From: Bacilli bacterium
Lineage (GTDB): Bacteria; Bacillota_I; Bacilli_A; RF39; UBA660
DNA length: 64,000 bases
Assembly: GCA_017416535.1 (NCBI GenBank)
Contig: JAFQCG010000005.1
Location: forward strand, 51,132-115,131
Direction: 5' to 3'
The translations under genes were made by a program, and so were the position numbers. Numbering within the stretch: the stretch's first letter is position 1; each line of letters opens with the position of its first letter. A model generated the notes under the pieces. The model made no database searches. It saw nothing but the letters and a program-made list of their open reading frames with translations, and was not told the origin of the DNA. Positions 1,768 to 31,656 of the stretch are shown here, in pieces.

Positions 1768-2550
1768 TTATTGATTAGAAATTATTATTTTAAACTCATT
1801 ATCTGTTAGTTTATATAACATATCTACTGGTTTATCTGTACTGTATTTTCCACAACTTACAACCATTTCATAAATATTGTCTTTATCAATGTCTAATACT
1901 GCACTTAAATATGGCTTACAACCATTATTTGTCATATTAGGTGCAATGTCTGTATACATTGGATATATCTTACTATTTTTTACCATAAATACAAATGAAA
2001 ATATTTTACTTGGATTATAATCTAATGAAAATGCATTACTTATAAAATAGAATGTTTCATTTTGACCATCATTGTCTATATCTATACTTGTTTCTGATGC
2101 TACTGTATATTTTGATGATGTACTTAAATTATTTTTTTCTAACATTTTTTCTACATGATAATAATTTCTTATATTTTTTGTAGAAAAGTTTTTTACTTTA
2201 ACATCATAATTTGCATCATATGCTAGAATATTTCCATCTGTTGTTACAGCTTTTTTATTTTTATCAAATACATACCATTTATTATCATTTTTCCATAAAT
2301 AATATTTTCCAAATGCTTTATTATCTAGATAAACTTTATATTGTTTCCAATTAAGAGATGCGATAGTTGAACTATTTGTTACATTTGTCCAATTATCGTT
2401 TTCTAATGTCCAAATTGTTTCATCTCCAACAATAAGTGTTAATTTATCTTTACTTGGAATAAGTAAATCTTTTCCTAATACTAAAAGCATTATTACTACA
2501 TAAACACCAAGTGCTGCTAATATCACAATATATCTTTTTTTCTTTTTCAT
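1768..2550 (-). CDS. Membrane-anchored hypothetical protein. It occupies the position of a VirB8/TcpC-like accessory protein, but this is not demonstrable here.
   Basis: N-terminal KKKKR plus TM helix. Extracellular part has two DxDxDG-like motifs (DIDNDGQ, DIDKDN). Sits 5 nt from the upstream hydrolase gene. Confidence 0.5.
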   Translation of the reverse strand: MKKKKRYIVILAALGVYVVIMLLVLGKDLLIPSKDKLTLIVGDETIWTLENDNWTNVTNSSTIASLNWKQYKVYLDNKAFGKYYLWKNDNKWYVFDKNKKAVTTDGNILAYDANYDVKVKNFSTKNIRNYYHVEKMLEKNNLSTSSKYTVASETSIDIDNDGQNETFYFISNAFSLDYNPSKIFSFVFMVKNSKIYPMYTDIAPNMTNNGCKPYLSAVLDIDKDNIYEMVVSCGKYSTDKPVDMLYKLTDNEFKIIISNQ

Positions 2551-7571: not shown

Positions 7572-9644
7572 TTATGGTCTAGGACCTCCAGGTCCTCCAC
7601 CAGCACCATGACCAGAACTTCCAATTGTTGAATCGTCTGTTGTACCAGAGAAATCTTTAAGATCTCTTTTGTGACCAGATACTTCATCCAAGATATCTTG
7701 ATCTCTATTTCCGGTTGCCTTTGTAATATTACCAGCATCGCTATCTGGTAAATGAGCATAATCAATTCCACCAATTGGAGAATTTTTAGAATCTTCATTT
7801 GTTGTAATAGGCGAACGATATGTTCCTTCTCTTATTACATAGTCATTATCATCATAATCTTCACCATTAAGTCTATATGCAAGTGTATTTTGATGTCTAC
7901 GTTTATCACTTACACGTGGACCAACTCCGAAGTTACCACGGTCTTTATCCATTTCGTCATATTTCTTCTTAGCCTTTGCAGCAGCAATTTGATAAGCATC
8001 GTATTGTCTGTATGCTTTTTCGTATCTTTCTCTTGCAGCAGTTCTCTCCGCGGCTGTTGCTGTTGGAGATAAATTGTTGTATTCCATTGTTGCTGCATCT
8101 AGTTCTCGTTTTGCAGTGGCAGCTTGTGCTTCTCTGACGTCACTAATGTATTTTGCATCTGCGATAGCTTCTCTTCCAATACCTAACATATTTGCACGAC
8201 GTTCACGTGTATCAAAATTAAGTCTATCTTGCATTGCACCAAATACTCCACCTTTGGCATCCTTATCACCTGTTCTAATTTTAGCCATAAGGTCACTGTT
8301 TTGACTCCATACAGAACCAAGTGGAACTGCTTTTCCTTGATTGTACCCTTGAGTAGCGGCTTCTGTTCCTTGCATTGCTCCAAGAGCAAATCCTTTCATA
8401 CCTCCACCACCAACGGCCATTGCTGTACCACCAAGTAGTCCAGCAAGTCCAACATTTGATGATGCTCCTTTAATTCCAAGAATGTCTTTAATAAATTTAG
8501 GAGCTTGTTTAACGAAGAAGAATAATCCAATCCAAATAAAGATTGCTGAAATTACTCCAATTATACCTGTTCCTGTATTTATAACTAACCCATTAACAAT
8601 CATGTCTTGGATTAAGAATATTACGAAATATATTACTGCTAAGTGCATAAACAACTCTAAGTATGTAGAAGTTAAGGATTTTACCCATGCACTAAATGCT
8701 CCATCTTTTTCTGATTTAGGATCAATATAACTAATAATTGGTATTGGTGCTAAAAGTCTTAATACCGCTAGTTTTATTGAACGAATTGCGATAGTAATTA
8801 TTTCTCCTAGTAAGATGTAAATAAATACTGCCCCTACTATTGTTGAAATAATTGGTATATATGCAAATACATATCTATCTCCACTAAATAATCTTTTGAA
8901 GAATCCTGCCATTTTTTCAAAGAATCCTTCATTTTGTCCTTCACAACTTGCATTTACTAATGAAAGAATTTGATTAGGACTTGCTTCTAAAGATGAATAA
9001 GCATCTAAAACATCTTGATCAATATAACTACATACACGGTCTTCTGGTTTTGTTTCATCAGTTCCTGTATCTTTTAAGTTAATTCGAACAAATCCCTTTA
9101 AGATGGTTGATGTAAACATATTTGCTGATTTTTTCAATTTTTCTTGTTGTGTTGTTGCCGTATTACCGGATGATGTTCCATCGTTAGTTCCCAGAATCAA
9201 TCTACCTAATGTGTTATTTTCTAAAATTCTATCTTGTAACTCATATAATGTTCCAAATAACAAACCGTTATTATTAAGATTAATTTCATAATCTGTTCTT
9301 GCTCCTGGAATATTAATTGGTGTTAATACTGTTAACATAATTAAAGCAAAAACTATTCTTCCTATTATGCTAGAAAAACCTGATTTCTTATCTGTAAAAG
9401 TATCAGGGTTTATAATTCCTTGAATAATTGATACTGCAAGTTTAAATATCATGAATACACCAATGATCATTTGTACACGACCATAGAACTTTTGAACAGT
9501 TTCATTAGCAAAAATATCTGCACTTGCTACGTTAAACAAGATTTCATACATGATTCCAAGTAACCAATATGTTGCTCTATCTAATAATGCAAACAGACTT
9601 CGGAATATGTCGTTTATCGTGTTGGCTGTCATATAATCTGTCAT
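7572..9644 (-). CDS. VirB6/TrbL-like polytopic T4SS membrane protein with a long cytoplasmic C-terminal tail
   Basis: Multiple TM helices in the first ~400 aa. Then a ~290-aa charged, coiled-coil-like tail ending GSSGHGAGGGPGGPRP. Position between the pilin-like genes and VirB3/VirB4. Confidence 0.6.
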   Translation of the reverse strand: MTDYMTANTINDIFRSLFALLDRATYWLLGIMYEILFNVASADIFANETVQKFYGRVQMIIGVFMIFKLAVSIIQGIINPDTFTDKKSGFSSIIGRIVFALIMLTVLTPINIPGARTDYEINLNNNGLLFGTLYELQDRILENNTLGRLILGTNDGTSSGNTATTQQEKLKKSANMFTSTILKGFVRINLKDTGTDETKPEDRVCSYIDQDVLDAYSSLEASPNQILSLVNASCEGQNEGFFEKMAGFFKRLFSGDRYVFAYIPIISTIVGAVFIYILLGEIITIAIRSIKLAVLRLLAPIPIISYIDPKSEKDGAFSAWVKSLTSTYLELFMHLAVIYFVIFLIQDMIVNGLVINTGTGIIGVISAIFIWIGLFFFVKQAPKFIKDILGIKGASSNVGLAGLLGGTAMAVGGGGMKGFALGAMQGTEAATQGYNQGKAVPLGSVWSQNSDLMAKIRTGDKDAKGGVFGAMQDRLNFDTRERRANMLGIGREAIADAKYISDVREAQAATAKRELDAATMEYNNLSPTATAAERTAARERYEKAYRQYDAYQIAAAKAKKKYDEMDKDRGNFGVGPRVSDKRRHQNTLAYRLNGEDYDDNDYVIREGTYRSPITTNEDSKNSPIGGIDYAHLPDSDAGNITKATGNRDQDILDEVSGHKRDLKDFSGTTDDSTIGSSGHGAGGGPGGPRP

Positions 9645-9671: not shown

Positions 9672-10751
9672 TTATTGTAATCCACAAATTCCACTTGAAG
9701 TTATATTAAATAACTCTAGGAATGCTGAAACTATATCTGGTAATATGAACAAACTTGCTGCAAGGATAAGTCTTATAATTAACTTATTTTGCGCTTTTTT
9801 CATTCCATCGTCATCTCCCATGACAACTACTTTGGCAAATTCAATACCACTCATAACTACTACTATAAATGGTCCAATTAATTTTACCCAGTTAAATATA
9901 ATTTGTAAGAAGTAAGCTACTGACTCTGGGTCATCATAACTTCCTAATATACTATTATCACCAGTACAATCTTGGTTTTGGTTATAGTCTTCTAACCATT
10001 CATCCATTTCTGGTTCACCAAGTGCTTTATGATATGAATTTGATGCTATTTCTTGTCCATCTATTAAATCATATCCTTTTACTTTTTTAGTTGATAATAA
10101 GTATTTATATTGATTTTCATCTACTTTAACATTTCTATATATTGTTACATCATTTACTTTATTATTAGCATATATCTTGTTAATTAGCTTACTATCTAAT
10201 TTAATTTCAATATTATTTATTTGGATTGATTCATTTGTTTCTACAAAATCTTTTCCATTAATAGACCATTCTTTTGTTCCATCATTTAATAATCTAAACA
10301 TTGGAATGAAATATTTATTTTCATTATATATTCCAACACTACCAATAGCAGTAGTATCTACTGCTTTTTTTACACTTATATTTTCCTTTGATGAATAGTT
10401 TTTTGTACTTACTTTTGTACATTTTCCATTACAATCTTCATCATTTTTCGCATTAACAAATATTGTTGTAAATAATGATGATTCTTCAATTGTAATTGTA
10501 GGACATACATAATTTATACTATTTGTCTTTGCTGATCTTAAATAATCTTCCTTAAAATTATCTGCATGATAAAAATTATTTTCTCCATCTGTAAAAGGTA
10601 CGTCAACTTTACTATTTATTGTGTAAACTAATTCTTTGTCTTGGTACATATATTTACACATTACTTTTTCTTCTTTTGCGTTGATATTATTTGGTATAAA
10701 CAAGATTGATATTATCATCAAAATCATACCAAAAAGTTGCATTTTTTTCAT
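9672..10751 (-). CDS. Secreted protein with a C-terminal VirB2/TrbC-like two-TM hairpin
   Basis: Signal peptide MKKMQLFGMILMIISILFIPNNINA. ~230-aa extracellular part. The C-terminal hairpin GPFIVVVMSGIEFAKVVVMGDDDGMKKAQNKLIIRLILAASLFILPDIV is paralogous to the 106-aa protein downstream of it. Confidence 0.5.
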   Translation of the reverse strand: MKKMQLFGMILMIISILFIPNNINAKEEKVMCKYMYQDKELVYTINSKVDVPFTDGENNFYHADNFKEDYLRSAKTNSINYVCPTITIEESSLFTTIFVNAKNDEDCNGKCTKVSTKNYSSKENISVKKAVDTTAIGSVGIYNENKYFIPMFRLLNDGTKEWSINGKDFVETNESIQINNIEIKLDSKLINKIYANNKVNDVTIYRNVKVDENQYKYLLSTKKVKGYDLIDGQEIASNSYHKALGEPEMDEWLEDYNQNQDCTGDNSILGSYDDPESVAYFLQIIFNWVKLIGPFIVVVMSGIEFAKVVVMGDDDGMKKAQNKLIIRLILAASLFILPDIVSAFLELFNITSSGICGLQ

Positions 10752-10795
10752 AAGATCACTCCAAATACATTATAACATATTAAGTATATCAGAAG

Positions 10796-10824
10796 AAAAA
10801 AAAAATAGCAATTTATTTACTATT
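10796..10824 (-). terminator. Weak intrinsic terminator or attenuator after the 106-aa pilin-like gene
   Basis: RNA sense aauagua-aauaaau-ugcuauu followed by a run of about 9-10 U, 20 nt after the stop at 10844. The stem is AU-rich, so it is weak. Confidence 0.3.
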
Positions 10825-10843
10825 TTTTATTTTGCTGTCAATA

Positions 10844-11164
10844 TTATACTGATTCCCAGCAAGACCACCAATCTCCTGTATTTCCAGTTCCACCTTTAGC
10901 AACAACATCCATTATTGCTTTAACTAGGAATACTACGAAGAAAATTAGTGCTGCATAAATTGCACGTTTAATTAATCTACTTTGTGCTGCTTTAACTTCT
11001 TTTTCGTCACTTGCTATTACAGCTTTACCAAAATCGATAACTGCATAAATAAGTAATGCAATTGGAATAACAATATATACTATTGGGAATAACCCGTTTT
11101 TAACTAAACTTACTAGTGGGTCTAATCCTCCACAAGCTGAAGCTAATTGAACTAATTCTAACAT
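10844..11164 (-). CDS. VirB2/TrbC-like pilin-type hairpin protein
   Basis: 106 aa with two hydrophobic helices separated by the basic loop SDEKEVKAAQSRLIKR. Cys before helix 1 (ASACGG) and after helix 2 (WSCWES). First gene of the T4SS block. Confidence 0.5.
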   Translation of the reverse strand: MLELVQLASACGGLDPLVSLVKNGLFPIVYIVIPIALLIYAVIDFGKAVIASDEKEVKAAQSRLIKRAIYAALIFFVVFLVKAIMDVVAKGGTGNTGDWWSCWESV

Positions 11165-11186
11165 ACAAACCTCTCCTTCAATGTAT

Positions 11187-11215
11187 ATAATACATTATAT
11201 CATTTTTTTTGTCAA
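11187..11215 (-). promoter_or_regulatory. Candidate sigma-A promoter in front of the T4SS block
   Basis: Minus-strand TTGACA (11210-11215), 17-nt spacer, TATTAT (11187-11192). Lies in the 55-nt gap between the TadZ-like gene and the pilin-like gene. Confidence 0.4.
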
Positions 11216-11219
11216 ATAT

Positions 11220-12284
11220 TTAACGTCTAAATAGACCAAATATTTTTCCAGAATTTCCACCTTGCGAAATTTGTAATAATCCAACTTTTGCAAGTAATTC
11301 TGTTATTATTTCATTTTTCTTTCTATCATTAACTGGTGGTAAATTAAAGAATGATTTAATTCCTGCTTCATACTCTAATTCACTTACATCTTTACTAGTT
11401 AATAGACTTTGATTAAATATAATCTTTTTATCTTTTATTTTACCAAAAATGTGCTTGTTTTTTCTGATTAATTTATTTAATTTCAATGTGCTTGGTTCTA
11501 ATAAATATAAAACATCATCACATATTGTATTATCTTCATAATCATTTAAGTCAACTAATATAACTGAGACACCACTATATCTTTCAATAACACTTTTTAC
11601 ATCATTAGTATTTGTTGATACCATGTTTTTATCATTATAGAATTGAAAATCGTTTTTATTAATTTCTATTCCTACTACATTATTTTCACCAAATACTGAT
11701 ACAAGTTCTTTTTTGAACATATATATTAAACTTGTTGCTCCTGCGTGGTCTGTAACATTTCTAACACCAATTTTAATTGTTCGAGCCATATTTCCTTGTT
11801 GGACAACTGCGTGAGCTGCTGGAGAAACAAATCCTCCACCTTGCTCCGGTTGGGCTTGTTCAACTGGTGCTGGTTGTTGAAGTTCTTGAATAACTCCGCC
11901 TCCACCCATTTGTTGAATTTGAGCAACATCATTATAAGTATTTGATTGTTTTAATAAATATTTTACTCCATCTATATTAGTTGTAAAGTTGTAGATTCCT
12001 AATGTTACTAATTTTGCTAGAAAATTAGGAGTACATAAACTGCTTCCTTCTGGAATGAAGAATATTATTTTTTCCGCATCTAATCCATCTGCTAATGCCT
12101 TATACATTAGAATGTTGTTATAATCCTTAATCGCAGTTACATCTAATACCATTTTACTATAGAAGAAATTTTTAAACATTTCAACTAGTTCATTTGCACT
12201 ATATGAACCTGTAATACTTTTAATTATATCAACATCAAGATTAGCCATTTTTCCTTGTTGTTCATTTGAAACTATAACATTCAT
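11220..12284 (-). CDS. TadZ/CpaE-like protein with a degenerate P-loop
   Basis: Receiver-like N-terminal ~115 aa and a Q/P/G-rich linker. The C-terminal ParA/MinD-like part has IKIGVRNVTDHAGATS where KGGxGKT/S is expected, then ILVDL. Located in a Tad gene context. Confidence 0.45.
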   Translation of the reverse strand: MNVIVSNEQQGKMANLDVDIIKSITGSYSANELVEMFKNFFYSKMVLDVTAIKDYNNILMYKALADGLDAEKIIFFIPEGSSLCTPNFLAKLVTLGIYNFTTNIDGVKYLLKQSNTYNDVAQIQQMGGGGVIQELQQPAPVEQAQPEQGGGFVSPAAHAVVQQGNMARTIKIGVRNVTDHAGATSLIYMFKKELVSVFGENNVVGIEINKNDFQFYNDKNMVSTNTNDVKSVIERYSGVSVILVDLNDYEDNTICDDVLYLLEPSTLKLNKLIRKNKHIFGKIKDKKIIFNQSLLTSKDVSELEYEAGIKSFFNLPPVNDRKKNEIITELLAKVGLLQISQGGNSGKIFGLFRR

Positions 12285-12302: not shown

Positions 12303-12800
12303 TTAACTACCACGTTTAATAACTATAGGTTTTGTATCACCACGAACTTCAAATATTTTAGGCAATATTCGATTTACTATTGGTATATCTATATTTATTT
12401 GTGTTACCACTTTAAAGTATGACCTTTTCTTTGTGTCGTCTGCATTTCCTACCGAAATATCATTAATTGGTACTTCTTTAATACAATATCCAGCACCATT
12501 TCCACAATCCCATTCATTTTGATTTTCTGCTGCATCTGCATTTTTTCCAGTATCATTTTTTATATCTAAGTAAGGCGCATTATATCCTAAACTGTTCATA
12601 TAATCCTGAATTTTTAAATGACATGCATTAGTTGATTCGATTTTACAATCTCCTTCATATTCTTCAATTGTAGAAATAATTTTATTTTTAACTCTGAATG
12701 CTTTTGTATAATTAACATTAAGAGCTAAATATCCTGAAACTAAAGTAAGAAATACAATTATAATAGCTAAGTTAGCTATTCCACCAAAAGCATCACGCAT
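12303..12800 (-). CDS. TadE-like pseudopilin (minor pilin)
   Basis: N-terminus MRDAFGG-IANLAIIIVFLTLVSGYL has the same M[KR]DAxG leader plus hydrophobic helix as the adjacent small pilin. Remainder is extracellular with Cys residues. Confidence 0.5.
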   Translation of the reverse strand: MRDAFGGIANLAIIIVFLTLVSGYLALNVNYTKAFRVKNKIISTIEEYEGDCKIESTNACHLKIQDYMNSLGYNAPYLDIKNDTGKNADAAENQNEWDCGNGAGYCIKEVPINDISVGNADDTKKRSYFKVVTQINIDIPIVNRILPKIFEVRGDTKPIVIKRGS

Positions 12801-12818
12801 TTAAATACACCCTCTTTA

Positions 12819-12986
12819 TTACTTTTCTACTACAACCATTCCTGCTGGAGTACCACTAATATTATTCCATTGCGCATTTAACGAGTTTTGGATATTTGGC
12901 CACATAACCCAGAAGAATCCGATAACTGCAGCAATTGCTACTAAAGTAATTACTGTTAAGTTTAATTCACCTGTCGCATCTTTCAT
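12819..12986 (-). CDS. Flp-like (type IVc / class III signal) prepilin, 55 aa, absent from the ORF track
   Basis: My translation: MKDATGELNLTVITLVAIAAVIGFFWVMWPNIQNSLNAQWNNISGTPAGMVVVEK. SD aaaggatg lies 8 nt upstream. Sits between tadC and the TadE-like gene. The track does not list ORFs this short. Confidence 0.6.
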   Translation of the reverse strand: MKDATGELNLTVITLVAIAAVIGFFWVMWPNIQNSLNAQWNNISGTPAGMVVVEK

Positions 12987-13018
12987 TTACTTACACATCC
13001 TTTCATTATCATAATTTT

Positions 13019-13047
13019 ATTATAACAAATTAATATTTGTCATACAA
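13019..13047 (-). promoter_or_regulatory. Candidate promoter dedicated to the pilin gene
   Basis: Minus-strand TTGTAT (13042-13047), 17 nt, TATAAT (13019-13024), in the 77-nt gap after tadC. The AT-rich background makes this weak evidence. Confidence 0.3.
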
Positions 13048-13063
13048 CTTTTTTTAAATCGGT

Positions 13064-13870
13064 TTACATACTGAACATCATCATCATAGAGATTAAGATT
13101 ATTAACATTACACCAACTCCAGTAACGACTAACATTACCATTGTTTGAGATTCCATGAATCCTAAACGTTCTTTATATTTTGTTTCACGAGCTTTATTTT
13201 GTAAAGCTGATACTGTTTTTGAAAACATCATCAAACGTTCTTGTTTTTTCTCTTGTGAACCAAGACCTAAACGATATAATAAACGCATCATACGCATTGA
13301 GTCACGTACTGGATAAGTGTTTGCAAATTCCATATACGGATCAATTGTTGAATCACCAGCATTAATTCTATCGATTAGTTTTCTAAGTCCAGGTTTAAAT
13401 ATTTCAGGAGCATCTTCAATAGATTTTCCTAATGCTACTGGTACAGTATAATGTTGTATTAAAATTTCCAAACTTTTTAAATAGTATGGCAACATAATAT
13501 CAATTTCATGTAAATGTTTTTTATAATAACTTTTTAACTGAGAATATGATGATTTAAATACTACAAAAGCAACTACTGCAGATAGTGCTAAATATAAGAA
13601 GAACTCTGAACCTAATTGGTCTTGCTCTCCTCCACTAACTGCAAATGCTAGTACCATGAAGAATGTAAATATTCCATATGTTACTCTTTTCATATATAGC
13701 TGTTTAATATCAACACTTTCTCCATATCTTGCATATACTAAAAATTCATAATCTTTTTCTTTTAAAGCTTCTAAATATTTTTCATTATCGGCAAAGAATT
13801 TATTTTTATCGATGGTATTGTTATATATTAGTACGAATAATATGATTGCTCCTATAATTAATATTTCCAT
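13064..13870 (-). CDS. tadC: TadC-like platform protein (T2SS F family)
   Basis: 268 aa. TM helices flank a cytoplasmic GspF-type domain (LPYYLKSLEILIQHYTVPVALGKSIEDAP...). Second of two paralogous F-family genes after the CpaF ATPase. Confidence 0.75.
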   Translation of the reverse strand: MEILIIGAIILFVLIYNNTIDKNKFFADNEKYLEALKEKDYEFLVYARYGESVDIKQLYMKRVTYGIFTFFMVLAFAVSGGEQDQLGSEFFLYLALSAVVAFVVFKSSYSQLKSYYKKHLHEIDIMLPYYLKSLEILIQHYTVPVALGKSIEDAPEIFKPGLRKLIDRINAGDSTIDPYMEFANTYPVRDSMRMMRLLYRLGLGSQEKKQERLMMFSKTVSALQNKARETKYKERLGFMESQTMVMLVVTGVGVMLIILISMMMMFSM

Positions 13871-14772
13871 TATTCAGCACCTACATTCTCATTATAGTAT
13901 TTTTCTCCTTTTAAAAGGAAATATGTATTAACTACGATTACTGCATGTAGTAAAACTTGAATATACCATCTTTCTAATAAGATAATGTAACTTTCATTCC
14001 CTAATAAAAGCTGCACTAACATAACTAATAAATATAACGTTACACCGAATGTTAAGAAGTTTTTGTGGAAAGAAGCTCTTTCAATTCTGTCTCGATATAC
14101 ACTTTCAATTAACATGTCTATGTCTAATTGCATGTTATCTAGTGAGTCTGCTGAGTTTCTTGCACCTTCTTTTGTAATTTGTAAGAATAATTGATGCATA
14201 TTTTTAACTATATAATATGGATATAATTCACTCATATAATCTAATGCTTCATCAATTGTACCGTTATCATATGATAGTTCAATCATGTGGTTAACATCAC
14301 TTAGTACTGGGTCTTCAAGAATTCCTGAATTTCTAACTCCTTCTAGTGATTTAACAAATGATTGTGTTGTGGCAAATTCCATAATTACATTTGATGTATA
14401 TACTTGAATTTGCTCAAATATAAATTCACTATAAACTCTCTTACATCTTAAATAAGCTAAGTAAGGAACAAATGTTACGGCAATTGCTGCATACATTAAA
14501 CTTATTACGATGTTATAAAAATATAAGTATGATATTCCACCTGCTCCTCCTGCAAATAAACATATTTGCATAACATATTGTTTTGTTGAATATTCTTGAC
14601 CAAGTTCTTTTGCTTTTTCTCTAACAACTTTAAAGGAGAATGGTGCGTATTTATCATAAATTGTTTGTACTTGTTCAGTAATAAATTTACCAACGTTTTG
14701 TCCTTTATAATTTCTATATAGAAATACGCCAACAATTATTACTATTATAATTAATAATTCTTCTAAATACAT
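13870..14772 (-). CDS. tadB: TadB-like platform protein (T2SS F family)
   Basis: 300 aa with GspF-type architecture. Directly follows the CpaF-like ATPase and abuts tadC, with stop and start sharing nt 13870. Confidence 0.75.
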   Translation of the reverse strand: MYLEELLIIIVIIVGVFLYRNYKGQNVGKFITEQVQTIYDKYAPFSFKVVREKAKELGQEYSTKQYVMQICLFAGGAGGISYLYFYNIVISLMYAAIAVTFVPYLAYLRCKRVYSEFIFEQIQVYTSNVIMEFATTQSFVKSLEGVRNSGILEDPVLSDVNHMIELSYDNGTIDEALDYMSELYPYYIVKNMHQLFLQITKEGARNSADSLDNMQLDIDMLIESVYRDRIERASFHKNFLTFGVTLYLLVMLVQLLLGNESYIILLERWYIQVLLHAVIVVNTYFLLKGEKYYNENVGAE

Positions 14773-14784
14773 ACTTACTCCTTT

Positions 14785-16113
14785 CTATTCTGATAAACTA
14801 TCTAATTTAACTACAGCTGGTGCTGTAGGTTGAACTTGTGGTTGTTGTGGAGCTGATGCTGCAACTGGTGTTATTTGAGGACTTGGTGTTTGTGGTTGAA
14901 TTAATGTTGGTTCCTCTAGTTTTGCTTCTACTGTTGGTGTTGCTTTTTTCTCCTCTGTAACTGTCGCTGCAGGTTTTTCTTCACTTGCCACAGGTTCTTT
15001 TTTATCTTCAATTTTTTCTAGTTCAATATCATTTTGTTCTTTAAATGGCATTTCATCAGGTAGTTTATCAACAATTGCACTTACGTCGATATTTTGGTTT
15101 TCTAAGAATTGTAATAAGTGGGCGCTTGGCTTACGCATTACTGGTTTCTTACCAAATATCTTTTGGTAAATAATTCTTGATTGTGGAACATTGTTATCAT
15201 CTACGTAGAATTCACATACTTCATCTAATTCACGATGGAACTTTCCTCTTTCCTTACTATAATAAGCTTTAATGTGAACTCCTAATTGAATATAACGATA
15301 TATTGTTGTTAGGAATTGATTAACATCTAAGTCTGTTTCCATTAGGGAATATAGACGATATGGAATTGCTGAAGCTTTATCAGCATGGATTGTAGATAAA
15401 ATGTTGTGTCCTGATGAAATTGAGTTACGTACTGCTGAAACTGCTTCAGCACTACGTACTTCTGATAATAGAATCCATTTTGGATTCTGACGCATACAAG
15501 TAACTAAAACATCTGAGTAACTTGCAACGTTATTGGTCTTCATTGAAACAATATCTCTTTGTGGAAAAATTTTGTCTAAGTGAAGTTCCAATGTATCTTC
15601 TATTGTAATAATTTTTTCACTTGTTTTTGTATGACTTGCTAGATACTTAACAAACTCAGTTTTACCTGAACCTGTTTCTCCAGCTACCATGACGTTACAG
15701 TGCCCTTGAACACAATTAATTAGTAAGTCATGTACATCTTGAGTGAAATAATCGTCTTTTATCAACTTTTCTTTTTCCAAACGGATCTTTGCAGGAGTTT
15801 TACGAATAACTAATGCAATTCCGTTTGTTGCAATTGATTGGTGAACGAAGTTCATACGCAACTCAGCAGATTCAGCGTCCAAGAATGGTTTCGCATTATT
15901 GAATGTTGTTCCCATTACATTTGAACATTGGAATGCTAATTTTTCTACAAATTCTGGAGTTGCTCCATCTATTTCTACTCTTAAGGATCCTTGAGTTAGT
16001 GAACGAATCCATATTTGTCCTCCGTTACTATATGAAATATCGGTAATATCATCGTTGTCTAATAATGGACGAAATGCACCGAAGTCTAACTTGTCGAAAA
16101 TATTTTCATTCAT
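14785..16113 (-). CDS. tadA: TadA/CpaF-family pilus assembly ATPase with a P/Q/T/E-rich C-terminal tail
   Basis: Walker A VAGETGSGKTEF, Walker B region WILLSEVR, His box LSTIHA. ~75-aa low-complexity tail (...PQTPSPQITPVAASAPQQPQVQPTAPAVV...). Confidence 0.9.
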   Translation of the reverse strand: MNENIFDKLDFGAFRPLLDNDDITDISYSNGGQIWIRSLTQGSLRVEIDGATPEFVEKLAFQCSNVMGTTFNNAKPFLDAESAELRMNFVHQSIATNGIALVIRKTPAKIRLEKEKLIKDDYFTQDVHDLLINCVQGHCNVMVAGETGSGKTEFVKYLASHTKTSEKIITIEDTLELHLDKIFPQRDIVSMKTNNVASYSDVLVTCMRQNPKWILLSEVRSAEAVSAVRNSISSGHNILSTIHADKASAIPYRLYSLMETDLDVNQFLTTIYRYIQLGVHIKAYYSKERGKFHRELDEVCEFYVDDNNVPQSRIIYQKIFGKKPVMRKPSAHLLQFLENQNIDVSAIVDKLPDEMPFKEQNDIELEKIEDKKEPVASEEKPAATVTEEKKATPTVEAKLEEPTLIQPQTPSPQITPVAASAPQQPQVQPTAPAVVKLDSLSE

Positions 16114-16155
16114 CTAACTCACATCCCTTTAATTCTTCTTTTTTTATTCTTTATT

Positions 16156-16962
16156 TTATGTTTCATTCCAAACTGTAACTTTATTAATCCAGTCTTTTAG
16201 TGATTCACTACTAATTTCTAATTCTCCTGGTTCATCTTTTAAACTTTCGTTTGTTGGAACTGGAATTAGAGTTGAATCATATGTTCTTAAATATTCTGCT
16301 TTCTTTAATAAAATGTAATATTCCTCAGGTAAAGCAAATACGATCATTGCAGGTGTTCTTTTTTCATCTAGATTAGAGAATACTGCTTGTCCAGATGAAT
16401 CTTTAACTGCTAGAACTTTTACATTAGACATTAATTTACCTAACATGATTTTATTAGCATCGTCTGTCATTTCTTTTTCATCAGTAATTTTATTTACTGC
16501 TTTTAAATAAATATCGATATAGTTACCTGGATATACAGAGTTACCATATGTAGATTGTGTATTAACTGACATATTATATAATACATATCCTTTTGGATAA
16601 GTAAGAATAATATTAGCAGGTAATTGTTCTTTTTCTACAACTGTTCTGTCATAGAATAAACTACCTTCTGGAATTACTGTATCGGCACTTGCATATTTAT
16701 CAATTACTGCACTTTGTGAGGTGATTACACTACCTTCAAGCATTGATGGTGGAACTGCTCTTGTACCAACCATATCAGCAGTTATTTGTGTTCCTGGTGA
16801 TATTTGTTCTCTTGCATATGGTACATTGATTGGGTTAATTGCAGATTGTACACGCATATTATATGCTACATATAAAATTATAATTGCTGCAACTACACCT
16901 AGAACAGTTACTGTGTTTTTGTTTTGTAAAAACTTTTTAATTCCTGTACCTAAATTTCCCAT
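16156..16962 (-). CDS. cpaB: CpaB/RcpC-like Flp pilus assembly protein (SAF domain)
   Basis: N-terminal TM helix, then EQISPGTQITADMVGTRAVPPSMLEGSVI...IPEGSLFYDRTV, which is typical of CpaB. Confidence 0.8.
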   Translation of the reverse strand: MGNLGTGIKKFLQNKNTVTVLGVVAAIIILYVAYNMRVQSAINPINVPYAREQISPGTQITADMVGTRAVPPSMLEGSVITSQSAVIDKYASADTVIPEGSLFYDRTVVEKEQLPANIILTYPKGYVLYNMSVNTQSTYGNSVYPGNYIDIYLKAVNKITDEKEMTDDANKIMLGKLMSNVKVLAVKDSSGQAVFSNLDEKRTPAMIVFALPEEYYILLKKAEYLRTYDSTLIPVPTNESLKDEPGELEISSESLKDWINKVTVWNET

Positions 16963-17468: not shown

Positions 17469-20375
17469 TTATTCAGCCCCCCTTGGTTGACTACCTTGGT
17501 TATTTTCACCAAGTTCTCCTAATTTTATTATTGAGTCACCTGATAATATTCTTGTTCCACTTGTATCGCGGAATAAATTACTTTGATATACGTATACTCC
17601 ATTTACTGGGTTTTTGTTTATTTTTCCATTTGTCCACTTACCATAGGAATGTTCTTTGTTATCTTTTCTAATTGAAGCTAAATCCTCAGGTGTTAAATGG
17701 AATCTATAATCTAAATTATCAGACTCTTTATCACTATCATATAATGATGCTGAGTTACTTTGAATATGTTCAATTAATGCTGTAGGATTAATTTCATATT
17801 CTGGATTTTTACTTGTTTTTGCTTTATCTGTCCAGTTAAATCCAATTTCACGTTTTGTTGGATCTACTACTCCTGGTTCTAGAGCATTAGGGAACATATT
17901 TCCTTTATCAATTGTTCTGAATGTATAATTCATAACACCGTTATTTTCTTTTTTACTTGTTCCGCAACATCCGTTTTCTTTAACATTACATATTTCATTT
18001 CTTAATGCATAGAAGCATTTAATATCAAAGTTCCATTTAAATTTACCAAAGTCACGTGTACGAGCAACAATGTTATAGCCATTTGATGTTCCTGGTGAAC
18101 CTGCTAATTCTTCTTCTATTTGAGCAGGTGTATAACAATTATTTCCTAACTTATACCATTCCCACCATTTTGCATTTACGCTTTCAGCATCTAGTGGCAT
18201 ACAGAATTTTTGATCATCGTAATACCATCCATCTCCTGATTTTTCAGCAAATGATATTTCACCAGTCTTATTATGAATATATGTTCCTGGGAAACTCCAT
18301 TCTGTCATGTATTTATTTGCGGCATTTTTATCTTTATAACATCCATCTTTATCTAATATAATTGACTCGTTTGTTCCTGATGCTTCACCAGGTTTTAGTC
18401 CAGCCATTGTTTTTGCTTCATTGTCTTCAGCTTTTCCTTTTCCAATTGAATCGGCATCTGAAGTGAATGGGAAGTCAATTCTTGTAATTGTTGTTTTGTC
18501 TTCATCATTACCTTTGTCGTAATTAATTGAGATACTGAATGTTGCTTGATGTGTTTCGCATGTTGTACTTGCAATACAAGCTGACATTGCTTTGTTATAT
18601 TCAGCTCTGTTTCTTTCTTCATCTTTGGCAATTGTACCTGGGTTAAGGTATTTATCTTCTGCACATGAAGATGTTTGCCATTCACAATTATCTGTACATA
18701 AACTTCCACTATAGTTTGCACGATAGAATCCATTTCCATCGGCTACATATGAGCCACAGTATCCTGATGTACATGTATTTTTTATTCCAGAAATATCATA
18801 TCCACCAGCATAGTAGTTATTATTTATCGCTGCTCTATCAAGGTACCATCTACCTAAAGAGTTTTTATTGTTATATAGGATTGTTGGATTGTTTACATCA
18901 ATCTTTCCTTCTGAATTAGTATAGTTATCTAAAGCATACCAATCAATTTTGGAATCTCCTCGACCATAACATCCATAATATCCTTTATTTTCTTCTAAAC
19001 ATTGTTTTATTGTATATGAATTAGAATCAGCTAATCTTTCAACTTGTACATTTGAATAATCAACTGCTAGTTTCTTATTTGTTTTTCCATATGCTTTTTC
19101 ATAACATTTTAAACTACATTTTTCTGTATATTTTCCACCATCGCATTTTTCAACACATGAATCAAATTCTTCATTTGGTCCAGCTTGTGGTTTATTTCTT
19201 TCTGTACCTGATAATGATTCGCATCGTGGTGCTGGTGTACATGCTCCTGTTGGAACTGTAGGCTCTGGAGCTACGAATTTAGCATCACATTTTACATAAC
19301 TTGTTACTTTAACTTTATATTCAAAACATAGTCCTGCTTTTGAAGCAACTGGTGGACCATATTCTAATTTTACTGCTTCTTCACAAGTTCTTTCACATGC
19401 ATTATGTGTTTTTGTTACTGTTTGTCCTACTGCATAATTGTATGTGTATTGTAATGTATCTGTTTTTGTTTCTGATTTTGTATAGTAATAATCTTTATTT
19501 AAATAATATTCTGCAGATTGAATACTATCTCCATATTTATTTGTATATGTTTTTACTTCTTTATTTCCTGTATTTACAAATTTGTAATTACAATTTAAGC
19601 AGATTGTTTCATCTGATGGATTTTTAATTTTATTTCCAGCATCTTTAGCCTTTTTAGCAATTGTTGCAAAATCTGCCGGTTCTGGAGTTCTATTACTATA
19701 GATTTCCCATAAATCCTTTGTATTTTTGATATTTGATTTTAATGTTTCTTCAGCTGGATTTGAAGCTACATTTTGTTTCCAGCAATCTGGAATTGCTTTT
19801 TTAAAGAAATTATATTTTTCTGAGTTTACTGCACCAGCGGCAGTTCTATAATCTTTACAATGTGTATTGTAATATTTATTTGCTACTGTTTTTACTGAAC
19901 TACTTCCTGCAGGTTCTCTTGTTTCTGAAAATTTAACGTCGATATGTTGATATTCAAGATCTTTTGCTGCTGGATCAGTATTTTTTAATTTTACTGTTAA
20001 GTAATATTCGTTGCTATTACCTTTTCGTATTAATTCTGCTTTTATTGTTACTTCTTTATTACTCTTGCTGATTTTAGACCCAACTGCATCATTTTTACCA
20101 CCGTTAACACTTATTATTTCGTATTCAGCGGAATCGTGACTTTCGTTTGGTGTGCTACATGTTGGAACATCTTTTATTAAAGTATATTCTCCAGAAGTAC
20201 TGGTTGATTTGATATATATACCAAATTCATCAGCTAACTCTTTACAAGATAAATCTCTTGTTGTTTCTTCTGTTTCTGTTGCATAAATTTTTGGAATTGC
20301 AACTACACTTAGCATTAATAGTAATATTGATACAACCCCGATTATTCTTACTTTATGCTTGCGCATTGTCATCAT
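17469..20375 (-). CDS. Large secreted cysteine-rich protein (candidate adhesin or tip protein)
   Basis: Signal peptide (VVSILLLMLSVVAIPKIYA). 968 aa with roughly 30 Cys by hand count, many in close pairs (CLNC, CERTC, CVEKC, CSLKC, CTSGYC, CTDNC). No LPXTG and no TM anchor at the C-terminus. Confidence 0.7.
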   Translation of the reverse strand: MMTMRKHKVRIIGVVSILLLMLSVVAIPKIYATETEETTRDLSCKELADEFGIYIKSTSTSGEYTLIKDVPTCSTPNESHDSAEYEIISVNGGKNDAVGSKISKSNKEVTIKAELIRKGNSNEYYLTVKLKNTDPAAKDLEYQHIDVKFSETREPAGSSSVKTVANKYYNTHCKDYRTAAGAVNSEKYNFFKKAIPDCWKQNVASNPAEETLKSNIKNTKDLWEIYSNRTPEPADFATIAKKAKDAGNKIKNPSDETICLNCNYKFVNTGNKEVKTYTNKYGDSIQSAEYYLNKDYYYTKSETKTDTLQYTYNYAVGQTVTKTHNACERTCEEAVKLEYGPPVASKAGLCFEYKVKVTSYVKCDAKFVAPEPTVPTGACTPAPRCESLSGTERNKPQAGPNEEFDSCVEKCDGGKYTEKCSLKCYEKAYGKTNKKLAVDYSNVQVERLADSNSYTIKQCLEENKGYYGCYGRGDSKIDWYALDNYTNSEGKIDVNNPTILYNNKNSLGRWYLDRAAINNNYYAGGYDISGIKNTCTSGYCGSYVADGNGFYRANYSGSLCTDNCEWQTSSCAEDKYLNPGTIAKDEERNRAEYNKAMSACIASTTCETHQATFSISINYDKGNDEDKTTITRIDFPFTSDADSIGKGKAEDNEAKTMAGLKPGEASGTNESIILDKDGCYKDKNAANKYMTEWSFPGTYIHNKTGEISFAEKSGDGWYYDDQKFCMPLDAESVNAKWWEWYKLGNNCYTPAQIEEELAGSPGTSNGYNIVARTRDFGKFKWNFDIKCFYALRNEICNVKENGCCGTSKKENNGVMNYTFRTIDKGNMFPNALEPGVVDPTKREIGFNWTDKAKTSKNPEYEINPTALIEHIQSNSASLYDSDKESDNLDYRFHLTPEDLASIRKDNKEHSYGKWTNGKINKNPVNGVYVYQSNLFRDTSGTRILSGDSIIKLGELGENNQGSQPRGAE

Positions 20376-21204
20376 CTCCTTCCATCAATTTCTTTATTTC
20401 TTTGTATTTATCATTTGCTGTTACTTTGTAATTGTCCATTTTTTCATTTTCTCTTAATAATCTTCCTACAACAACAAATTGTTTTTGATTATTTTTACCA
20501 AATATTCTTGTACATGTTGTTAATGTAATAAGACTATCATTTTCATCTACCTCTACATCAAAATCGTAGATACTTGATTCATTGATTTGTTTGATGTAAT
20601 CTTTTGTTTCTTCTTTTGTATAGTTTTCTTTGTGATTTAAATCTAATTTATAATCTTTTTCAAAGAATACTCCAAATATTTTATATACATGATCTTCTTC
20701 ATTAACTGTATATTGAATATATTTATTATCATTAATAAAGTCTTCATATACAAAAGCCATTAAATCATCAAATCTTGAAAAATATTTTTCTCCAATCTTT
20801 GGTGTGTTTGATAGATTCATTATGTTATGTCCTGATATAACTACTTGATTGAATAATTTTTCTTTATTATTGTTATTCCATAGATAGTCATCTTTTTCAA
20901 CATGAGCTAAATCTGTTACATATTCATATCCAATGATTGGTGCATCTATTTTTGTTCCTTGAACTTTTAACCAACCAATTGTTTCATAACCAGTATTATC
21001 CTTTTCGTTTTTTTGTTCTTTTGCTATATTCCTTACTCTGCTATCCACTTTATATATTGATGTTCCAAATATATTTAGAGCAAATATTAATGTGAATACA
21101 ATACAGCAACAAATCAGAAGACCTGTTGTTAAGACTAATGTCTTGATCCTCTGACTTTGTTTCTTTGTTAATTTTATTTTCTTCTTTTTCATTGCTACAC
21201 CCAC
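20353..21204 (-). CDS. srtB: Class B sortase
   Basis: N-terminal TM helix. TIGWLKVQGTKIDAPIIGY resembles S. aureus SrtB DIVGWIKLSGTSLNYPVLQG (compared from memory). His in VISGHN, catalytic LITLTTCT, Arg in FVVVGRL. Confidence 0.8.
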   Translation of the reverse strand: MGVAMKKKKIKLTKKQSQRIKTLVLTTGLLICCCIVFTLIFALNIFGTSIYKVDSRVRNIAKEQKNEKDNTGYETIGWLKVQGTKIDAPIIGYEYVTDLAHVEKDDYLWNNNNKEKLFNQVVISGHNIMNLSNTPKIGEKYFSRFDDLMAFVYEDFINDNKYIQYTVNEEDHVYKIFGVFFEKDYKLDLNHKENYTKEETKDYIKQINESSIYDFDVEVDENDSLITLTTCTRIFGKNNQKQFVVVGRLLRENEKMDNYKVTANDKYKEIKKLMEGDDDNAQA

Positions 21205-23016
21205 TTACTTAGTAATGTTATATGGACTATCTTTAGTACCTTTTCCTTTTTTGATTGAAACTGATTTTTTCAAATTAGCTACTACCCTTATTCCATATTC
21301 ATCAAAATCTCCAACATTTTCTGTTATAACTACACCTGCATCTGTGACAAGAGCTTTATAATATGGTTCTTCAGATGAATTTAGTAACCAATATGAACGT
21401 GTTCTTGATGCTGATTTAGCACTTGCACTGAACATTTCATACATGTTTGGAGCAGATAATTTAACTTTATATTTTTCAGTTGTTTTTTGTTTTCCATATT
21501 GAATTTCTTTTTTGTATACTGGTACTTTAATTTCTTTATTAACAAAGTAAGATGTATCTATATATTCACTTACTTTATTATTAATGTAATAACCAACATT
21601 ATTCTTTTGAGTTGGGTTGTAAATCTTTTTATCAGATTTTACTTTCTTGTAGTTTGTTTTGATGTTTACTCCATCTTTCTTAATATTTTCTATAGAAACT
21701 ACTTTTGTTGTACCGTCTTCATTTACTTCAATAATTCTCCATAACATACCACCGTAGGAAATATATTCTCCAGAATAACGAGTATTAATTAGTTCATCTG
21801 TTTTTCCTGTTTTTGTTTCTCCAAATGTATAAGGAGATGTTGATGTTCCATTTCCAGATTTAATAAGTGTATTTCCTTTTATTGTTAAAACTGGTCTTAC
21901 ACCATAATTTTGTGTTTTTAAATCCGCATAGAAATCTGAACCAGCTTCATTTCCAAAAAATACATTTCTTGTTGTGTAAGCTGTTTTATCACTATTTTCA
22001 TTTGCTAACCACGATAATGTTTCTGGTTTCATAAAACTTTCTGATTTATCGTCTTTTGTAAGATTTACATCTATAACTGAAGGAATGTGTGCGTATTTAC
22101 TATCAGTAAATGATGTACATTCTGCTGCATTCAATGTTTCCTTAGTTACTTTCATATTACAGTATTTATTTTTTACTAGTAACTTCTTAGCATTATCATT
22201 TATATGCTTCATGAAATAATCTTCCAACCAAGGAGATACTCCACTATAGTTAACATTGGCAATATCTTCATCTGCGACTATTCTTACATTATTTCCATCA
22301 ATACCAATAATTCTAAATAGCATTCCAGAAAGTCTTACGTAGTTTGCTGGAGCCGAACCTTGGTAATAATCTTTTTTGTCATTTGCTATCTTTACTGCAT
22401 TTTTAATTTTTGATACTACTTCAACAGTTCTTTCTACAGTTGTTTTATTTTTTAATCCATCTGTTGCTGTATATGTTACTTTATATGTTCCAATTTTTTC
22501 TGTATCTACTTTTTTAGAATCGATGGTAACATCTTTTACATTCATCTTTCCATCTGTATTATCAACAACACTTTTTACTCCTGGTTCTTTATATTTAGAA
22601 CCTAAGTCAATTGTCATTGTTTCAGAACCATTAAGTTTTATTTCTGGTCCTTTGTTATCTACTGTTGATTTTATAGCTCCACATTGTAGATATGTGTAAT
22701 ACTTATACTCTCCATCTACTTTTCTTACCTTAACCCATGATTCTTTTAAGTCGCATGGTTTATCAGTATAAGGAATGTAGAAATCTTCTTTTAAGTATGA
22801 TTTGTGATATAGAGTTTGCATTGTTACTGTTGCAACTCTTTTTCCTGTTGGAAGTTCTGTTGGATTCAATTGATAATATCTAACTGCAGCTTCTTCCAAA
22901 GTCTTTTCATATTTACTGAAGTTGTATGATGGTTTAATAAAGATGAACCATACAAATAAGGCTACAATTACTACTACAACTAAAAGTTTTAAAACGCTTA
23001 ATGTTTTTTTATTCAT
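21205..23016 (-). CDS. Membrane-anchored surface protein with an Ig-like domain and two repeated WRI..EDG...G[VI]R[PV]V modules
   Basis: N-terminal TM helix LLVVVVIVALFVWFIF. Ig-like segment GPEIKLNGSETMTIDLGSKYKEPGVKSVVDNTDG...YKVTYTATDG. Two modules start MLFRIIGIDGNNVRIV and MLWRIIEVNEDGTTKV, and end YGVRPVLTIKGN...GNGTSTSPY and YGIRVVANLKK...GKGTKDSPY. Confidence 0.65.
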   Translation of the reverse strand: MNKKTLSVLKLLVVVVIVALFVWFIFIKPSYNFSKYEKTLEEAAVRYYQLNPTELPTGKRVATVTMQTLYHKSYLKEDFYIPYTDKPCDLKESWVKVRKVDGEYKYYTYLQCGAIKSTVDNKGPEIKLNGSETMTIDLGSKYKEPGVKSVVDNTDGKMNVKDVTIDSKKVDTEKIGTYKVTYTATDGLKNKTTVERTVEVVSKIKNAVKIANDKKDYYQGSAPANYVRLSGMLFRIIGIDGNNVRIVADEDIANVNYSGVSPWLEDYFMKHINDNAKKLLVKNKYCNMKVTKETLNAAECTSFTDSKYAHIPSVIDVNLTKDDKSESFMKPETLSWLANENSDKTAYTTRNVFFGNEAGSDFYADLKTQNYGVRPVLTIKGNTLIKSGNGTSTSPYTFGETKTGKTDELINTRYSGEYISYGGMLWRIIEVNEDGTTKVVSIENIKKDGVNIKTNYKKVKSDKKIYNPTQKNNVGYYINNKVSEYIDTSYFVNKEIKVPVYKKEIQYGKQKTTEKYKVKLSAPNMYEMFSASAKSASRTRSYWLLNSSEEPYYKALVTDAGVVITENVGDFDEYGIRVVANLKKSVSIKKGKGTKDSPYNITK

Positions 23017-23028
23017 AATTCCTCCTTA

Positions 23029-30798: not shown

Positions 30799-31656
30799 CT
30801 ATACACCATTTATTCTCATTATTCCAAGTATTGCCTTACTTGAACATGTTCTATAATCTTTATCTATTACAACTCCCCATTTAGATCCTTTGGCATGAAT
30901 CACTTCTGTACCAATTCCTGTTAGAATTCCTACGTGACCATCATACATAATTAAATCTCCAGCTCTAATATCTGTTGGACTAACTAATTTATAGGTTGAT
31001 TTAGCAGCCCATTGAGTTGATGTTGTTCTATTAAGATTAATTCCAAAATGTCTAAATACACCTTGAACGAAACCACTACAGTCTGTTGGAGTATATGGTA
31101 GTTCACCATTCCATTGTCCACCATAGACATATCTTTGTCCAACAAACTTTTTAGCATAAACAACTATTTGAGAACCTTTTAATGTTGATAATCCATTTCC
31201 TGTTTGATTAGCGTCTGTTGGTGGTGTTCCTGTTTCATATGCTTCTGGGTCTATTAAGAAAGAATTCTTTGGTCTATCTTTATTAGGGTCAATATATTTT
31301 GCTTCATGGGCACGCGAAACTTCACTTGCTATTTTTGCATGTTCCCAGCAATCAGCTATTTTAAATGTTGCTGTTTGACTAATCATTCCCATAACTACAT
31401 CAACAATTACTGGAATAAAGAAACAAACTACTGCAGCAATAAGCCTATTTATAACTTTCTTTCCTCCGCCTTTTTCATCTGGATTCATCACTAGTTTTAT
31501 AAACTGAATTGTTAAACCTACGATTAGAAGTATTGGTACTATTAATTGAAATATATTAAAAAACTTACGAACTATATCTAATACGGTTGCTAGAGCATAG
31601 TCTGTACAGCATGTACCTAATGCTTCATTACAAGTTAATATTTGAAAATATTGCAT
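30799..31656 (-). CDS. NlpC/P60 peptidoglycan endopeptidase anchored by a VirB2-like two-TM hairpin
   Basis: The C-terminal part carries the NlpC/P60 catalytic block: GQRYVYGGQW...TPTDCSGFVQGVFRHFG...GDLIMYDGHVGILTG...VIHA. The N-terminal 95 aa are paralogous to the hairpins at 10844-11164 and 9672-10751. Confidence 0.8.
   Translation of the reverse strand: MQYFQILTCNEALGTCCTDYALATVLDIVRKFFNIFQLIVPILLIVGLTIQFIKLVMNPDEKGGGKKVINRLIAAVVCFFIPVIVDVVMGMISQTATFKIADCWEHAKIASEVSRAHEAKYIDPNKDRPKNSFLIDPEAYETGTPPTDANQTGNGLSTLKGSQIVVYAKKFVGQRYVYGGQWNGELPYTPTDCSGFVQGVFRHFGINLNRTTSTQWAAKSTYKLVSPTDIRAGDLIMYDGHVGILTGIGTEVIHAKGSKWGVVIDKDYRTCSSKAILGIMRINGV

Follow-up and report, generated by a model that had tools for sequence, protein, structure and literature searches.

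Paralogous pilin-like hairpin modules with a conserved cysteine pair beside type IV secretion genes of gut Bacilli

The DNA analysed here, a low-GC stretch of 64,000 nucleotides (G+C ~28%) from a Bacilli genome (hereafter the window, to which all coordinates refer), encodes three proteins that share a two-helix membrane hairpin. A standalone protein of 106 amino acids (aa) and a 359-aa protein with the hairpin at its C-terminus are encoded side by side, directly upstream of genes for VirB6-, VirB3/4- and hydrolase-like components of a type IV secretion system (T4SS), and a 285-aa protein carries the hairpin in front of an NlpC/P60 endopeptidase domain. Every gene of this pilin cluster, and the NlpC/P60 gene as well, lies on the minus strand. 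An earlier note on this DNA had described the hairpins as VirB2/TrbC-like modules with flanking cysteines; the three open reading frames, the peptides it quoted, its P-x10-F-x-K-x-V pattern and its six cysteine motifs could all be read directly from the translations.

Three kinds of comparison agree that the same module is present in all three proteins, as had been proposed from a hand alignment. BLASTP aligned the N-terminus of the NlpC/P60 protein both with the 106-aa protein (E = 5e-10, 31% over 81 aa, CWE motif included) and with the C-terminus of the 359-aa protein (E = 3e-8), and gave no match between the single 106-aa and 359-aa sequences. This missing link was supplied by hhalign, which aligned the 106 and 359 families over 73 columns with a probability of 98.1% (E = 8e-14). 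We then took every stop-to-stop segment of 40 aa or more in the six frames of the window, 438 in total, and searched this set with a hidden Markov model (HMM) built from 60 standalone representatives, the window's own family being left out. This independent model matched the 106-aa (E = 2.7e-36), NlpC/P60 (E = 1.2e-29) and 359-aa (E = 2.7e-15) proteins and no other segment, even at E ≤ 10, despite several other multi-pass membrane proteins in the window. The modules also have non-hydrophobic motifs in common, namely a D-x-x-K-x-V loop, K/R-R before helix 2 and a flanking C ... W-x-x-C-W signature. The three modules are thus homologous.

Similarity of this kind might also arise as a by-product of membrane-helix composition among three unrelated small proteins, for instance holin-like or signal-anchor proteins. 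Family members indeed showed weak, spurious Pfam matches to G-protein-coupled receptor (GPCR) and holin models, a sequence-profile search of the PDB with the module returned GPCR helices alone at E > 0.06, which we judged to be composition noise, and BLASTP gave no direct link between the 106-aa and 359-aa proteins. The hhalign result and the specificity of the independent HMM effectively refute this explanation, and the shared non-hydrophobic motifs and the conserved synteny described below speak against it too, so that we rejected it as exceedingly improbable.

In the AlphaFold2 (AF2) model of the 106-aa protein (predicted local distance difference test score, pLDDT, 81), helices span residues 15–51, 54–90 and 98–105, and the loop of this family, predicted to be cytoplasmic, is nearly invariant. 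The reading frame begins at MLELVQLASACGG and allows no upstream extension, and we found no signal peptide or hydrophobic leader in it. In the 359-aa protein, the AF2 hairpin helices comprise residues 278–311 and 314–347, and the preceding ectodomain has no Foldseek match in the PDB or BFVD and no PDB sequence-profile match. Across lineages, the proteins encoded at this position carry an N-terminal domain of variable size, with whole lengths of 144–416 aa. Where the module is N-terminal in relatives, it is fused to NlpC/P60 (14 cases), Amidase_5, Peptidase_M23, CHAP, GDSL lipase or PT-HINT pretoxin domains, and because its partners are so diverse the hairpin seems to be a carrier for varied extracellular enzymes or toxins. 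We also observed that a motif, M-x-x-[LFY]-[FVI]-Q-[IL], opens the standalone and N-module pilins (in the window at 11140–11164 and 31633–31656, minus strand), and that a DY[ND]Q motif occupies the equivalent position before the cysteine in the 359 family. These short motifs could be a processing or docking signal.

We found 674 homologues of the 106-aa protein, and an exhaustive profile search put the size of the family at 10,029 clusters (50% identity, E ≤ 1e-3), or 4,867 at E ≤ 1e-10. Conservation was counted in the 149 best-ranked representatives, each from a different 50%-identity cluster, in which the module is standalone (67), C-terminal (39), N-terminal (42) or internal (1). For gene order, a pattern search limited to one genome per species yielded 155 relatives, of which the best 80 were used; these loci had been retrieved with patterns that cover the loop alone, and hence independently of the cysteines. 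All 80 come from uncultured gut metagenome-assembled genomes (MAGs) named as 'Bacilli / Tenericutes / Mycoplasma sp. / Candidatus Faecimonas'. A tblastn search of 72,556 plasmids with the 106-aa protein gave no match, leaving the family unseen on sequenced plasmids at that sensitivity.

The Pfam model PF18895, 'T4SS_pilin', matches the N-terminus of the NlpC/P60 protein with 27.1 bits, above its curated gathering cut-off of 26.6. At E ≤ 0.01 or 0.001 it also detects 42 of the 69 standalone relatives, with a best E of 1.4e-8, and 19 of the 42 N-module proteins. Since one copy in the window passes the cut-off, many relatives match, and hhalign and the independent HMM tie all three copies together, we place the module within or at the border of the PF18895 family, of which it is probably a divergent branch. 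It is VirB2-like in plan and not in detectable sequence. Together with the position of the genes directly upstream of the VirB6-, VirB3/4- and hydrolase-like genes, these matches bear out the suggestion that the hairpins are pilin-like in the T4SS sense.

The cysteines that flank the hairpin are strongly conserved among its homologues, in line with the earlier note. In the 359 family C356 is invariant, and C262 is present in 16 of 17 members and displaced by three residues in the remaining one. Among the 149 representatives, the N-flank cysteine column is occupied in 127 and the C-flank cysteine in 139, with tryptophan as the following residue in 136; 143 have cysteine on both flanks, and of the other six, most appear to come from truncated gene models. 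As these representatives had been chosen with a profile that contains the cysteines, we recounted in the loci retrieved by the loop patterns and found cysteine on both flanks in 83/83 standalone and 61/61 C-terminal modules (144/144). The claim that each copy has one cysteine before helix 1 fails for the NlpC/P60 protein, which has three (C9, C16 and C17). This C ... W-x-x-C-W signature falls outside the Pfam and NCBIfam descriptions because those models span the hairpin alone (71 positions in the Pfam model), and the cysteine flanks are probably not conserved across PF18895 as a whole.

Of 64 standalone relatives, 61 have an even number of cysteines predicted to lie outside the membrane (43 with two, 16 with four and 2 with six), and the three odd counts appear to stem from faulty gene calls. 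Paired cysteines also occur in other exported products of the cluster, with four in the TadE-like protein, two in the VirB6 loop and four in the ectodomain. The conserved pair and the even parity together favour disulfides: the pattern is the one that disulfide bonding would predict, and by itself it leaves the choice of partner equal. Bonds between subunits, from the N-flank cysteine of one to the C-flank cysteine of the next, would give a cross-linked filament or oligomer; each subunit has two cysteines, both predicted outside on surface-exposed tails, even parity fits this pairing equally well, and the variable length of the linker from helix 2 to W-x-x-C-W (profile columns 96–105 are gappy) would allow reach to a neighbour. 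However, the cysteines stand at similar distances from the ends of antiparallel helices (~15 residues before the first transmembrane (TM) helix and ~14 after the second), and the fusion proteins, which are expected as single copies, keep the pair. The extra cysteines of four- and six-cysteine members, moreover, cluster within one flank, suggesting local pairs. We therefore regard inter-subunit bonds as unlikely and, given the matching distances and the retention of the pair in single-copy fusions, prefer an intramolecular bond with modest confidence.

The predicted topology would place both cysteines outside. Each module has two hydrophobic segments, and net charges are +3, +2 and +3 for the loops of the 106-aa, 359-aa and NlpC/P60 proteins, against −1, −6 and −1 for their flanks. 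In the 359-aa protein a signal peptide and ectodomain precede the hairpin, and some standalone relatives also have a signal peptide. In the N-module relatives the wall hydrolase domains sit C-terminal of the module, and since wall hydrolases must act outside the membrane, the C-terminus would be outside too. An N-out/C-out arrangement with the basic loop in the cytoplasm, as the earlier note had it, is thus supported by charge, signal peptide and fusions alike. By hydropathy, charge, AF2 models and fusions, the module has the hairpin of the VirB2-like class, with two TM segments, a short charged loop and termini predicted outside.

The VirB6-like protein encoded downstream may itself begin with a built-in copy of the pilin module. 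Its first hairpin lines up with the module in register, and BLASTP matched it to the N-terminus of the NlpC/P60 protein (E = 5e-8). In hhalign the hairpin and the module aligned with a probability of 86.9% (E = 4e-6), compared with 0.3% for a reversed control, and a pilin HMM matched the VirB6 reading frame in 11 of the 80 related loci. The HMM built from standalone members alone did not match this hairpin among the 438 window segments, so we consider the link suggestive at most. The VirB6 first hairpin may nonetheless be evolutionarily related to the pilin module.

Downstream of the 106-aa gene follow, in order, the genes for the 359-aa protein, the VirB6-like protein, the 108-aa protein, a split VirB4, the SpoIID-domain protein, the 260-aa protein and a VirD4-like coupling protein (Table 1). 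The VirB4 split consists of two overlapping reading frames and is also seen in other assemblies; a PF26593 TraC-like match falls in this region. Of the Tad/Flp-like genes upstream, two have model matches (T2SSE, E = 4e-28; RcpC, E = 3.8e-6), and the TadB/C, TadE and Flp labels come from reading the sequences, without model matches. Synteny covers the Tad genes, the two pilin genes, VirB6, VirB4 and SpoIID in 64–80 of the 80 loci, and the Tad genes themselves in 70–78; VirB6 and VirB4 being encoded alongside gives the module the T4SS context of the VirB2-like class. The order standalone pilin, pilin with N-terminal domain, VirB6 is kept in nearly all 80 genomes. This synteny suggests that the Tad and T4SS genes form one functional unit.

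Table 1 Features of the pilin cluster and of the NlpC/P60 gene
Feature	Position in window	Strand	Details
406-aa protein	beyond window edge, after coupling protein		no family match; followed by housekeeping genes
VirD4-like coupling protein, 779 aa	just beyond position 1		CD1115 family, 311.9 bits (cut-off 250)
260-aa protein	1768-2550	-	unknown family; follows SpoIID gene
SpoIID-domain protein, 772 aa	2555-4873	-	likely wall-remodelling (VirB1-like) component
VirB4 ATPase part, 596 aa	4906-6696	-	Mbov_0397-type VirB4, 344.7 bits, model positions 295-891
VirB4 N-terminal part, 186 aa	6693-7253	-	Mbov_0397-type model positions 93-276
Small protein, 108 aa	7222-7548	-	possibly VirB3-like, unproven
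VirB6-like protein, 690 aa	7572-9644	-	pLS20_p028 family, E = 8.5e-8
First TM hairpin of VirB6-like protein	9309-9503	-	residues 48-112; probable fourth, Cys-less module copy (suggestive)
359-aa protein	9672-10751	-	Sec-type signal peptide 1-26, ectodomain, linker, C-terminal hairpin
Module of 359-aa protein	9675-9989	-	residues 255-359; Cys262 at 9966-9968, Cys356 at 9684-9686
Ectodomain of 359-aa protein	10043-10664	-	residues ~30-230, beta-rich, AF2 pLDDT ~90, four invariant Cys
Standalone pilin-like protein, 106 aa	10844-11164	-	TM-like segments ~25-43 and ~71-89, basic loop 45-68; Cys11 at 11132-11134, Cys102 (in W-x-x-C-W) at 10859-10861
Promoter-like site TTGACA-17-TATTAT	11187-11215	-	11/12 matches; in 55-bp gap (11165-11219) before 106-aa gene
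354-aa gene	11220-12284	-	between Tad genes and 106-aa pilin gene
Tad/Flp-like pilus genes	12303-16962	-	upstream; TadE-like 165 aa, Flp-like 55 aa, two TadB/C-like, CpaF-like ATPase, RcpC/CpaB-like
NlpC/P60 protein, 285 aa	30799-31656	-	N-terminal hairpin module, C-terminal endopeptidase
Module of NlpC/P60 protein	31312-31656	-	residues 1-115; C-flank C103 at 31348-31350
Peptidoglycan endopeptidase domain of NlpC/P60 protein		-	residues 173-279, NLPC_P60 E = 2.4e-15

Upstream of the Tad genes, at 17469–24582 (minus strand), we noted a sortase, a 968-aa protein that matches no family, and a pair of large surface proteins carrying immunoglobulin-like or DUF4352 domains; these may be cell-wall-anchored adhesins of the same surface apparatus. 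An 801-aa protein at 49968–52373 (minus strand) has the DUF285 'Mycoplasma protein' repeat domain, which is another Mollicutes-like surface feature.

We recognised no relaxase, integrase or replication functions of a mobile element in the window or in the 10 kb past its left edge, and the locus thus lacks the marks of a conjugative element; the 406-aa protein may be a candidate for an unrecognised relaxase. The flanks of the cluster are housekeeping genes (DnaE, MetRS, TyrRS, TrpRS and trigger factor). From these flanks, and as neither integrase nor relaxase was recognised, we conclude that the cluster is not an integrative and conjugative element (ICE).

The promoter-like site ahead of the 106-aa gene is followed by a GGAGAGG ribosome-binding site, and the interval that separates the 106-aa gene from the 359-aa gene (10752–10843, minus strand) contains a T-run and a second, extended -10-like sequence, TGTTATAAT. 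This layout suggests that the two pilins are expressed separately and unequally. Since the total of promoter-like sites in the region does not exceed that in shuffled sequences, what is suggestive is just the position and quality of the site before the 106-aa gene. The cluster of related strains is also represented among metatranscriptome contigs; expression levels cannot be ranked from the depth of contigs, and we did not use it to argue for a major pilin.

On balance we favour the view that these proteins are paralogous PF18895-type pilin hairpins of a chromosomal Gram-positive-type secretion machine (VirB4, VirB6 and CD1115-type VirD4) in a small-genome lineage of gut Bacilli, with the following subunit roles and disulfide tie. 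Once inserted, the module would expose both termini on the outer side and keep its short Lys/Arg-rich loop cytoplasmic. The 106-aa protein would be the major subunit, a role we assign to it on account of its 11/12 promoter match, strong ribosome-binding site and nearly invariant loop; it would be pulled from the membrane and stacked on VirB6 as a platform, forming a conduit across the wall that is lined by the conserved loop. As a minor or tip subunit, the 359-aa protein would carry on its hairpin a disulfide-rich ectodomain that could act as an adhesin or receptor-binding head, and the NlpC/P60 protein would be a wall hydrolase anchored by its pilin hairpin, which would bring the cutting enzyme to the machine or onto it. 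A bond between the two invariant cysteines, both predicted outside, would tie the N- and C-terminal tails together, by a chemistry other than the head-to-tail cyclisation seen in TrbC/VirB2 pilins. Polymerisation into a pilus, like the roles of the two fusion proteins, is proposed here by analogy.

Several results weigh against this reading. PF18895 scores the 106-aa protein, the presumed major subunit, at 16.9 bits, below its cut-off, and does not match the 359-aa protein. The direct profile similarity to TrbC/VirB2 that the earlier note had anticipated did not materialise: PF04956 matched neither the window proteins (E ≤ 0.1) nor the 69 standalone relatives (E ≤ 0.01), and hhalign gave probabilities of 0.7% against a five-sequence TrwL/VirB2 alignment from plasmid records and 0.2% against PrgF of pCF10. 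A Foldseek search of the PDB with the model of the 106-aa protein returned no pilin structure (best E = 5.8), a null result that is uninformative, since a bare pair of helices offers too little structure for such a search. VirB2 and TraA have a signal peptide and the 106-aa protein does not; a distance of 20 kb separates the NlpC/P60 gene, which stands amid housekeeping genes, from the cluster; and no thiol oxidoreductase was seen within the 64-kb window. We also know of no pilus observed for any Gram-positive-type T4SS.

Part of this evidence would suit the chief rival reading, in which the hairpin is a docking or anchoring module packed on VirB6 without any filament, holding ectodomains, hydrolases and small subunits while the cysteines stabilise an outside cap. 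Such a module could explain why the VirB6 first hairpin aligns with it in register, and anchors are typically fused to partners as different as NlpC/P60, Amidase_5, M23, CHAP, GDSL lipase and PT-HINT are here. Membrane anchoring is known for the VirB1-like hydrolases of Gram-positive systems (PMC12102498), and the lack of a structural match to solved pili fits as well. An anchor would, however, hardly account for a standalone 106-aa version, with a promoter-like site and a near-invariant loop, in every genome sampled. The Pfam family and its published relatives are, furthermore, interpreted as pilins, and labelling of PrgF indicates that its loop becomes accessible from outside the cell (bioRxiv 10.64898/2025.12.18.695078). 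We consider docking without a filament possible, if somewhat unlikely, and retain the pilin assignment.

A wider and more speculative reading joins the pilin hairpins with their Tad neighbours in one organelle. Small-genome gut Bacilli (RF39-like 'Tenericutes' MAGs) would then have a chromosomal Tad and pilus-forming T4SS apparatus in which no relaxase is recognised, with disulfide-stapled pilins, assembly templated by the pilin copy in VirB6, and hairpins by which the filament displays adhesin heads, wall hydrolases, lipases and toxins of the HINT type. Its function would be cell-to-cell interaction, like that of the essential T4SS of epibiotic Patescibacteria, and not conjugation. We hold this combination, taken as a whole, to be improbable. 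The hairpin family as such may point to a Patescibacteria-like and possibly host-dependent biology in abundant, uncultured small-genome gut Bacilli.

The earlier note's remark that the classical parts list of Gram-positive T4SSs includes no pilin-like subunits is now outdated. Such subunits have been described in Patescibacteria (PMC10633639, PMC12102498), one such array being essential to Southlakia (PMC10633639), and in pCF10 and the majority of Gram-positive conjugative plasmids, VirB2-like candidates having been reported in December 2025 for 95% of the Gram-positive representative plasmids screened (bioRxiv 10.64898/2025.12.18.695078); a 2025 review still names Patescibacteria as the sole exception (PMC12857230). 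Pilin-like subunits in single-membrane T4SSs are thus already known from the Patescibacteria work of 2023 and 2025, the PrgF preprint of 2025 and the NCBIfam model for Mycoplasma ICEs. New here are the lineage of small-genome gut Bacilli, the conserved cysteine signature, the natural fusions of the module, a possible pilin-like start of VirB6, and the chromosomal union with a Tad system in which no relaxase was recognised. The question whether single-membrane bacteria make pili with their T4SSs became open to testing just recently (Patescibacteria, 2023–2025; PrgF preprint, December 2025), and pilus formation and subunit chemistry should be easy to probe in this family because of its invariant cysteine pair, predicted to lie outside, and its natural fusions, which fix the topology.

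Among known systems, the Mbov_0395 family (NF045849) of Mycoplasma ICEs resembles the module in a weak match over the hairpin, and the neighbouring VirB4 is nearest to the Mbov_0397 type. Kinship with the pilin-like family of Mollicutes ICEs, for which the earlier note had proposed a check, found no further support, as NF045849 scored the 106-aa and NlpC/P60 proteins at 14.8 and 18.3 bits, far below its cut-off of 40, and the element here is not an ICE.

Classical VirB2/TrbC pilins (PF04956; TrwL of R388, the T-pilin and RP4 TrbC) share the hairpin plan and a conserved proline in helix 1. Their termini are tied together by head-to-tail cyclisation, as a putative disulfide would tie them here. 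Beyond the absence of profile similarity, they differ in having a long leader that is cleaved off, with no counterpart in the 106-aa protein, and in acting within two-membrane envelopes together with VirB5, 7, 9 and 10.

PrgF(B2) of pCF10 is a small protein with two TM segments and a charged cytoplasmic loop, encoded just upstream of a VirB6-like gene in an MPF-FATA-type system. It is reported to assemble on PrgH/VirB6 with its charged loop lining the lumen (bioRxiv 10.64898/2025.12.18.695078), and the stacking on a VirB6 pentamer proposed for PrgF parallels that proposed here for the 106-aa protein. In contrast, PrgF has 75 aa, no cysteine and no detectable sequence similarity to the module; it is plasmid-borne with a relaxase, and no ectodomain or hydrolase fusions have been described for it.

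The PF18895 arrays of Patescibacteria share with the proteins described here the two-helix hairpin, the short charged loop and the Pfam model itself. In both cases several divergent pilin paralogues per genome adjoin the VirB6 and VirB4 genes of a Gram-positive-type machine, and both machines are chromosomal, lie in reduced genomes, have no recognised relaxase and occur together with a type IV-like pilus system. The host here is instead a low-GC Bacilli lineage, and a VirD4-like coupling protein is present, whereas it is reported to be unrecognisable in Southlakia. The cluster here contains two pilin genes, compared with arrays of up to 11 in Patescibacteria, and is contiguous with Tad genes; its pilins carry a cysteine pair and W-x-x-C-W motif beyond the 71 positions of the Pfam model, and one copy of the module is joined to an ectodomain and another to a wall hydrolase.

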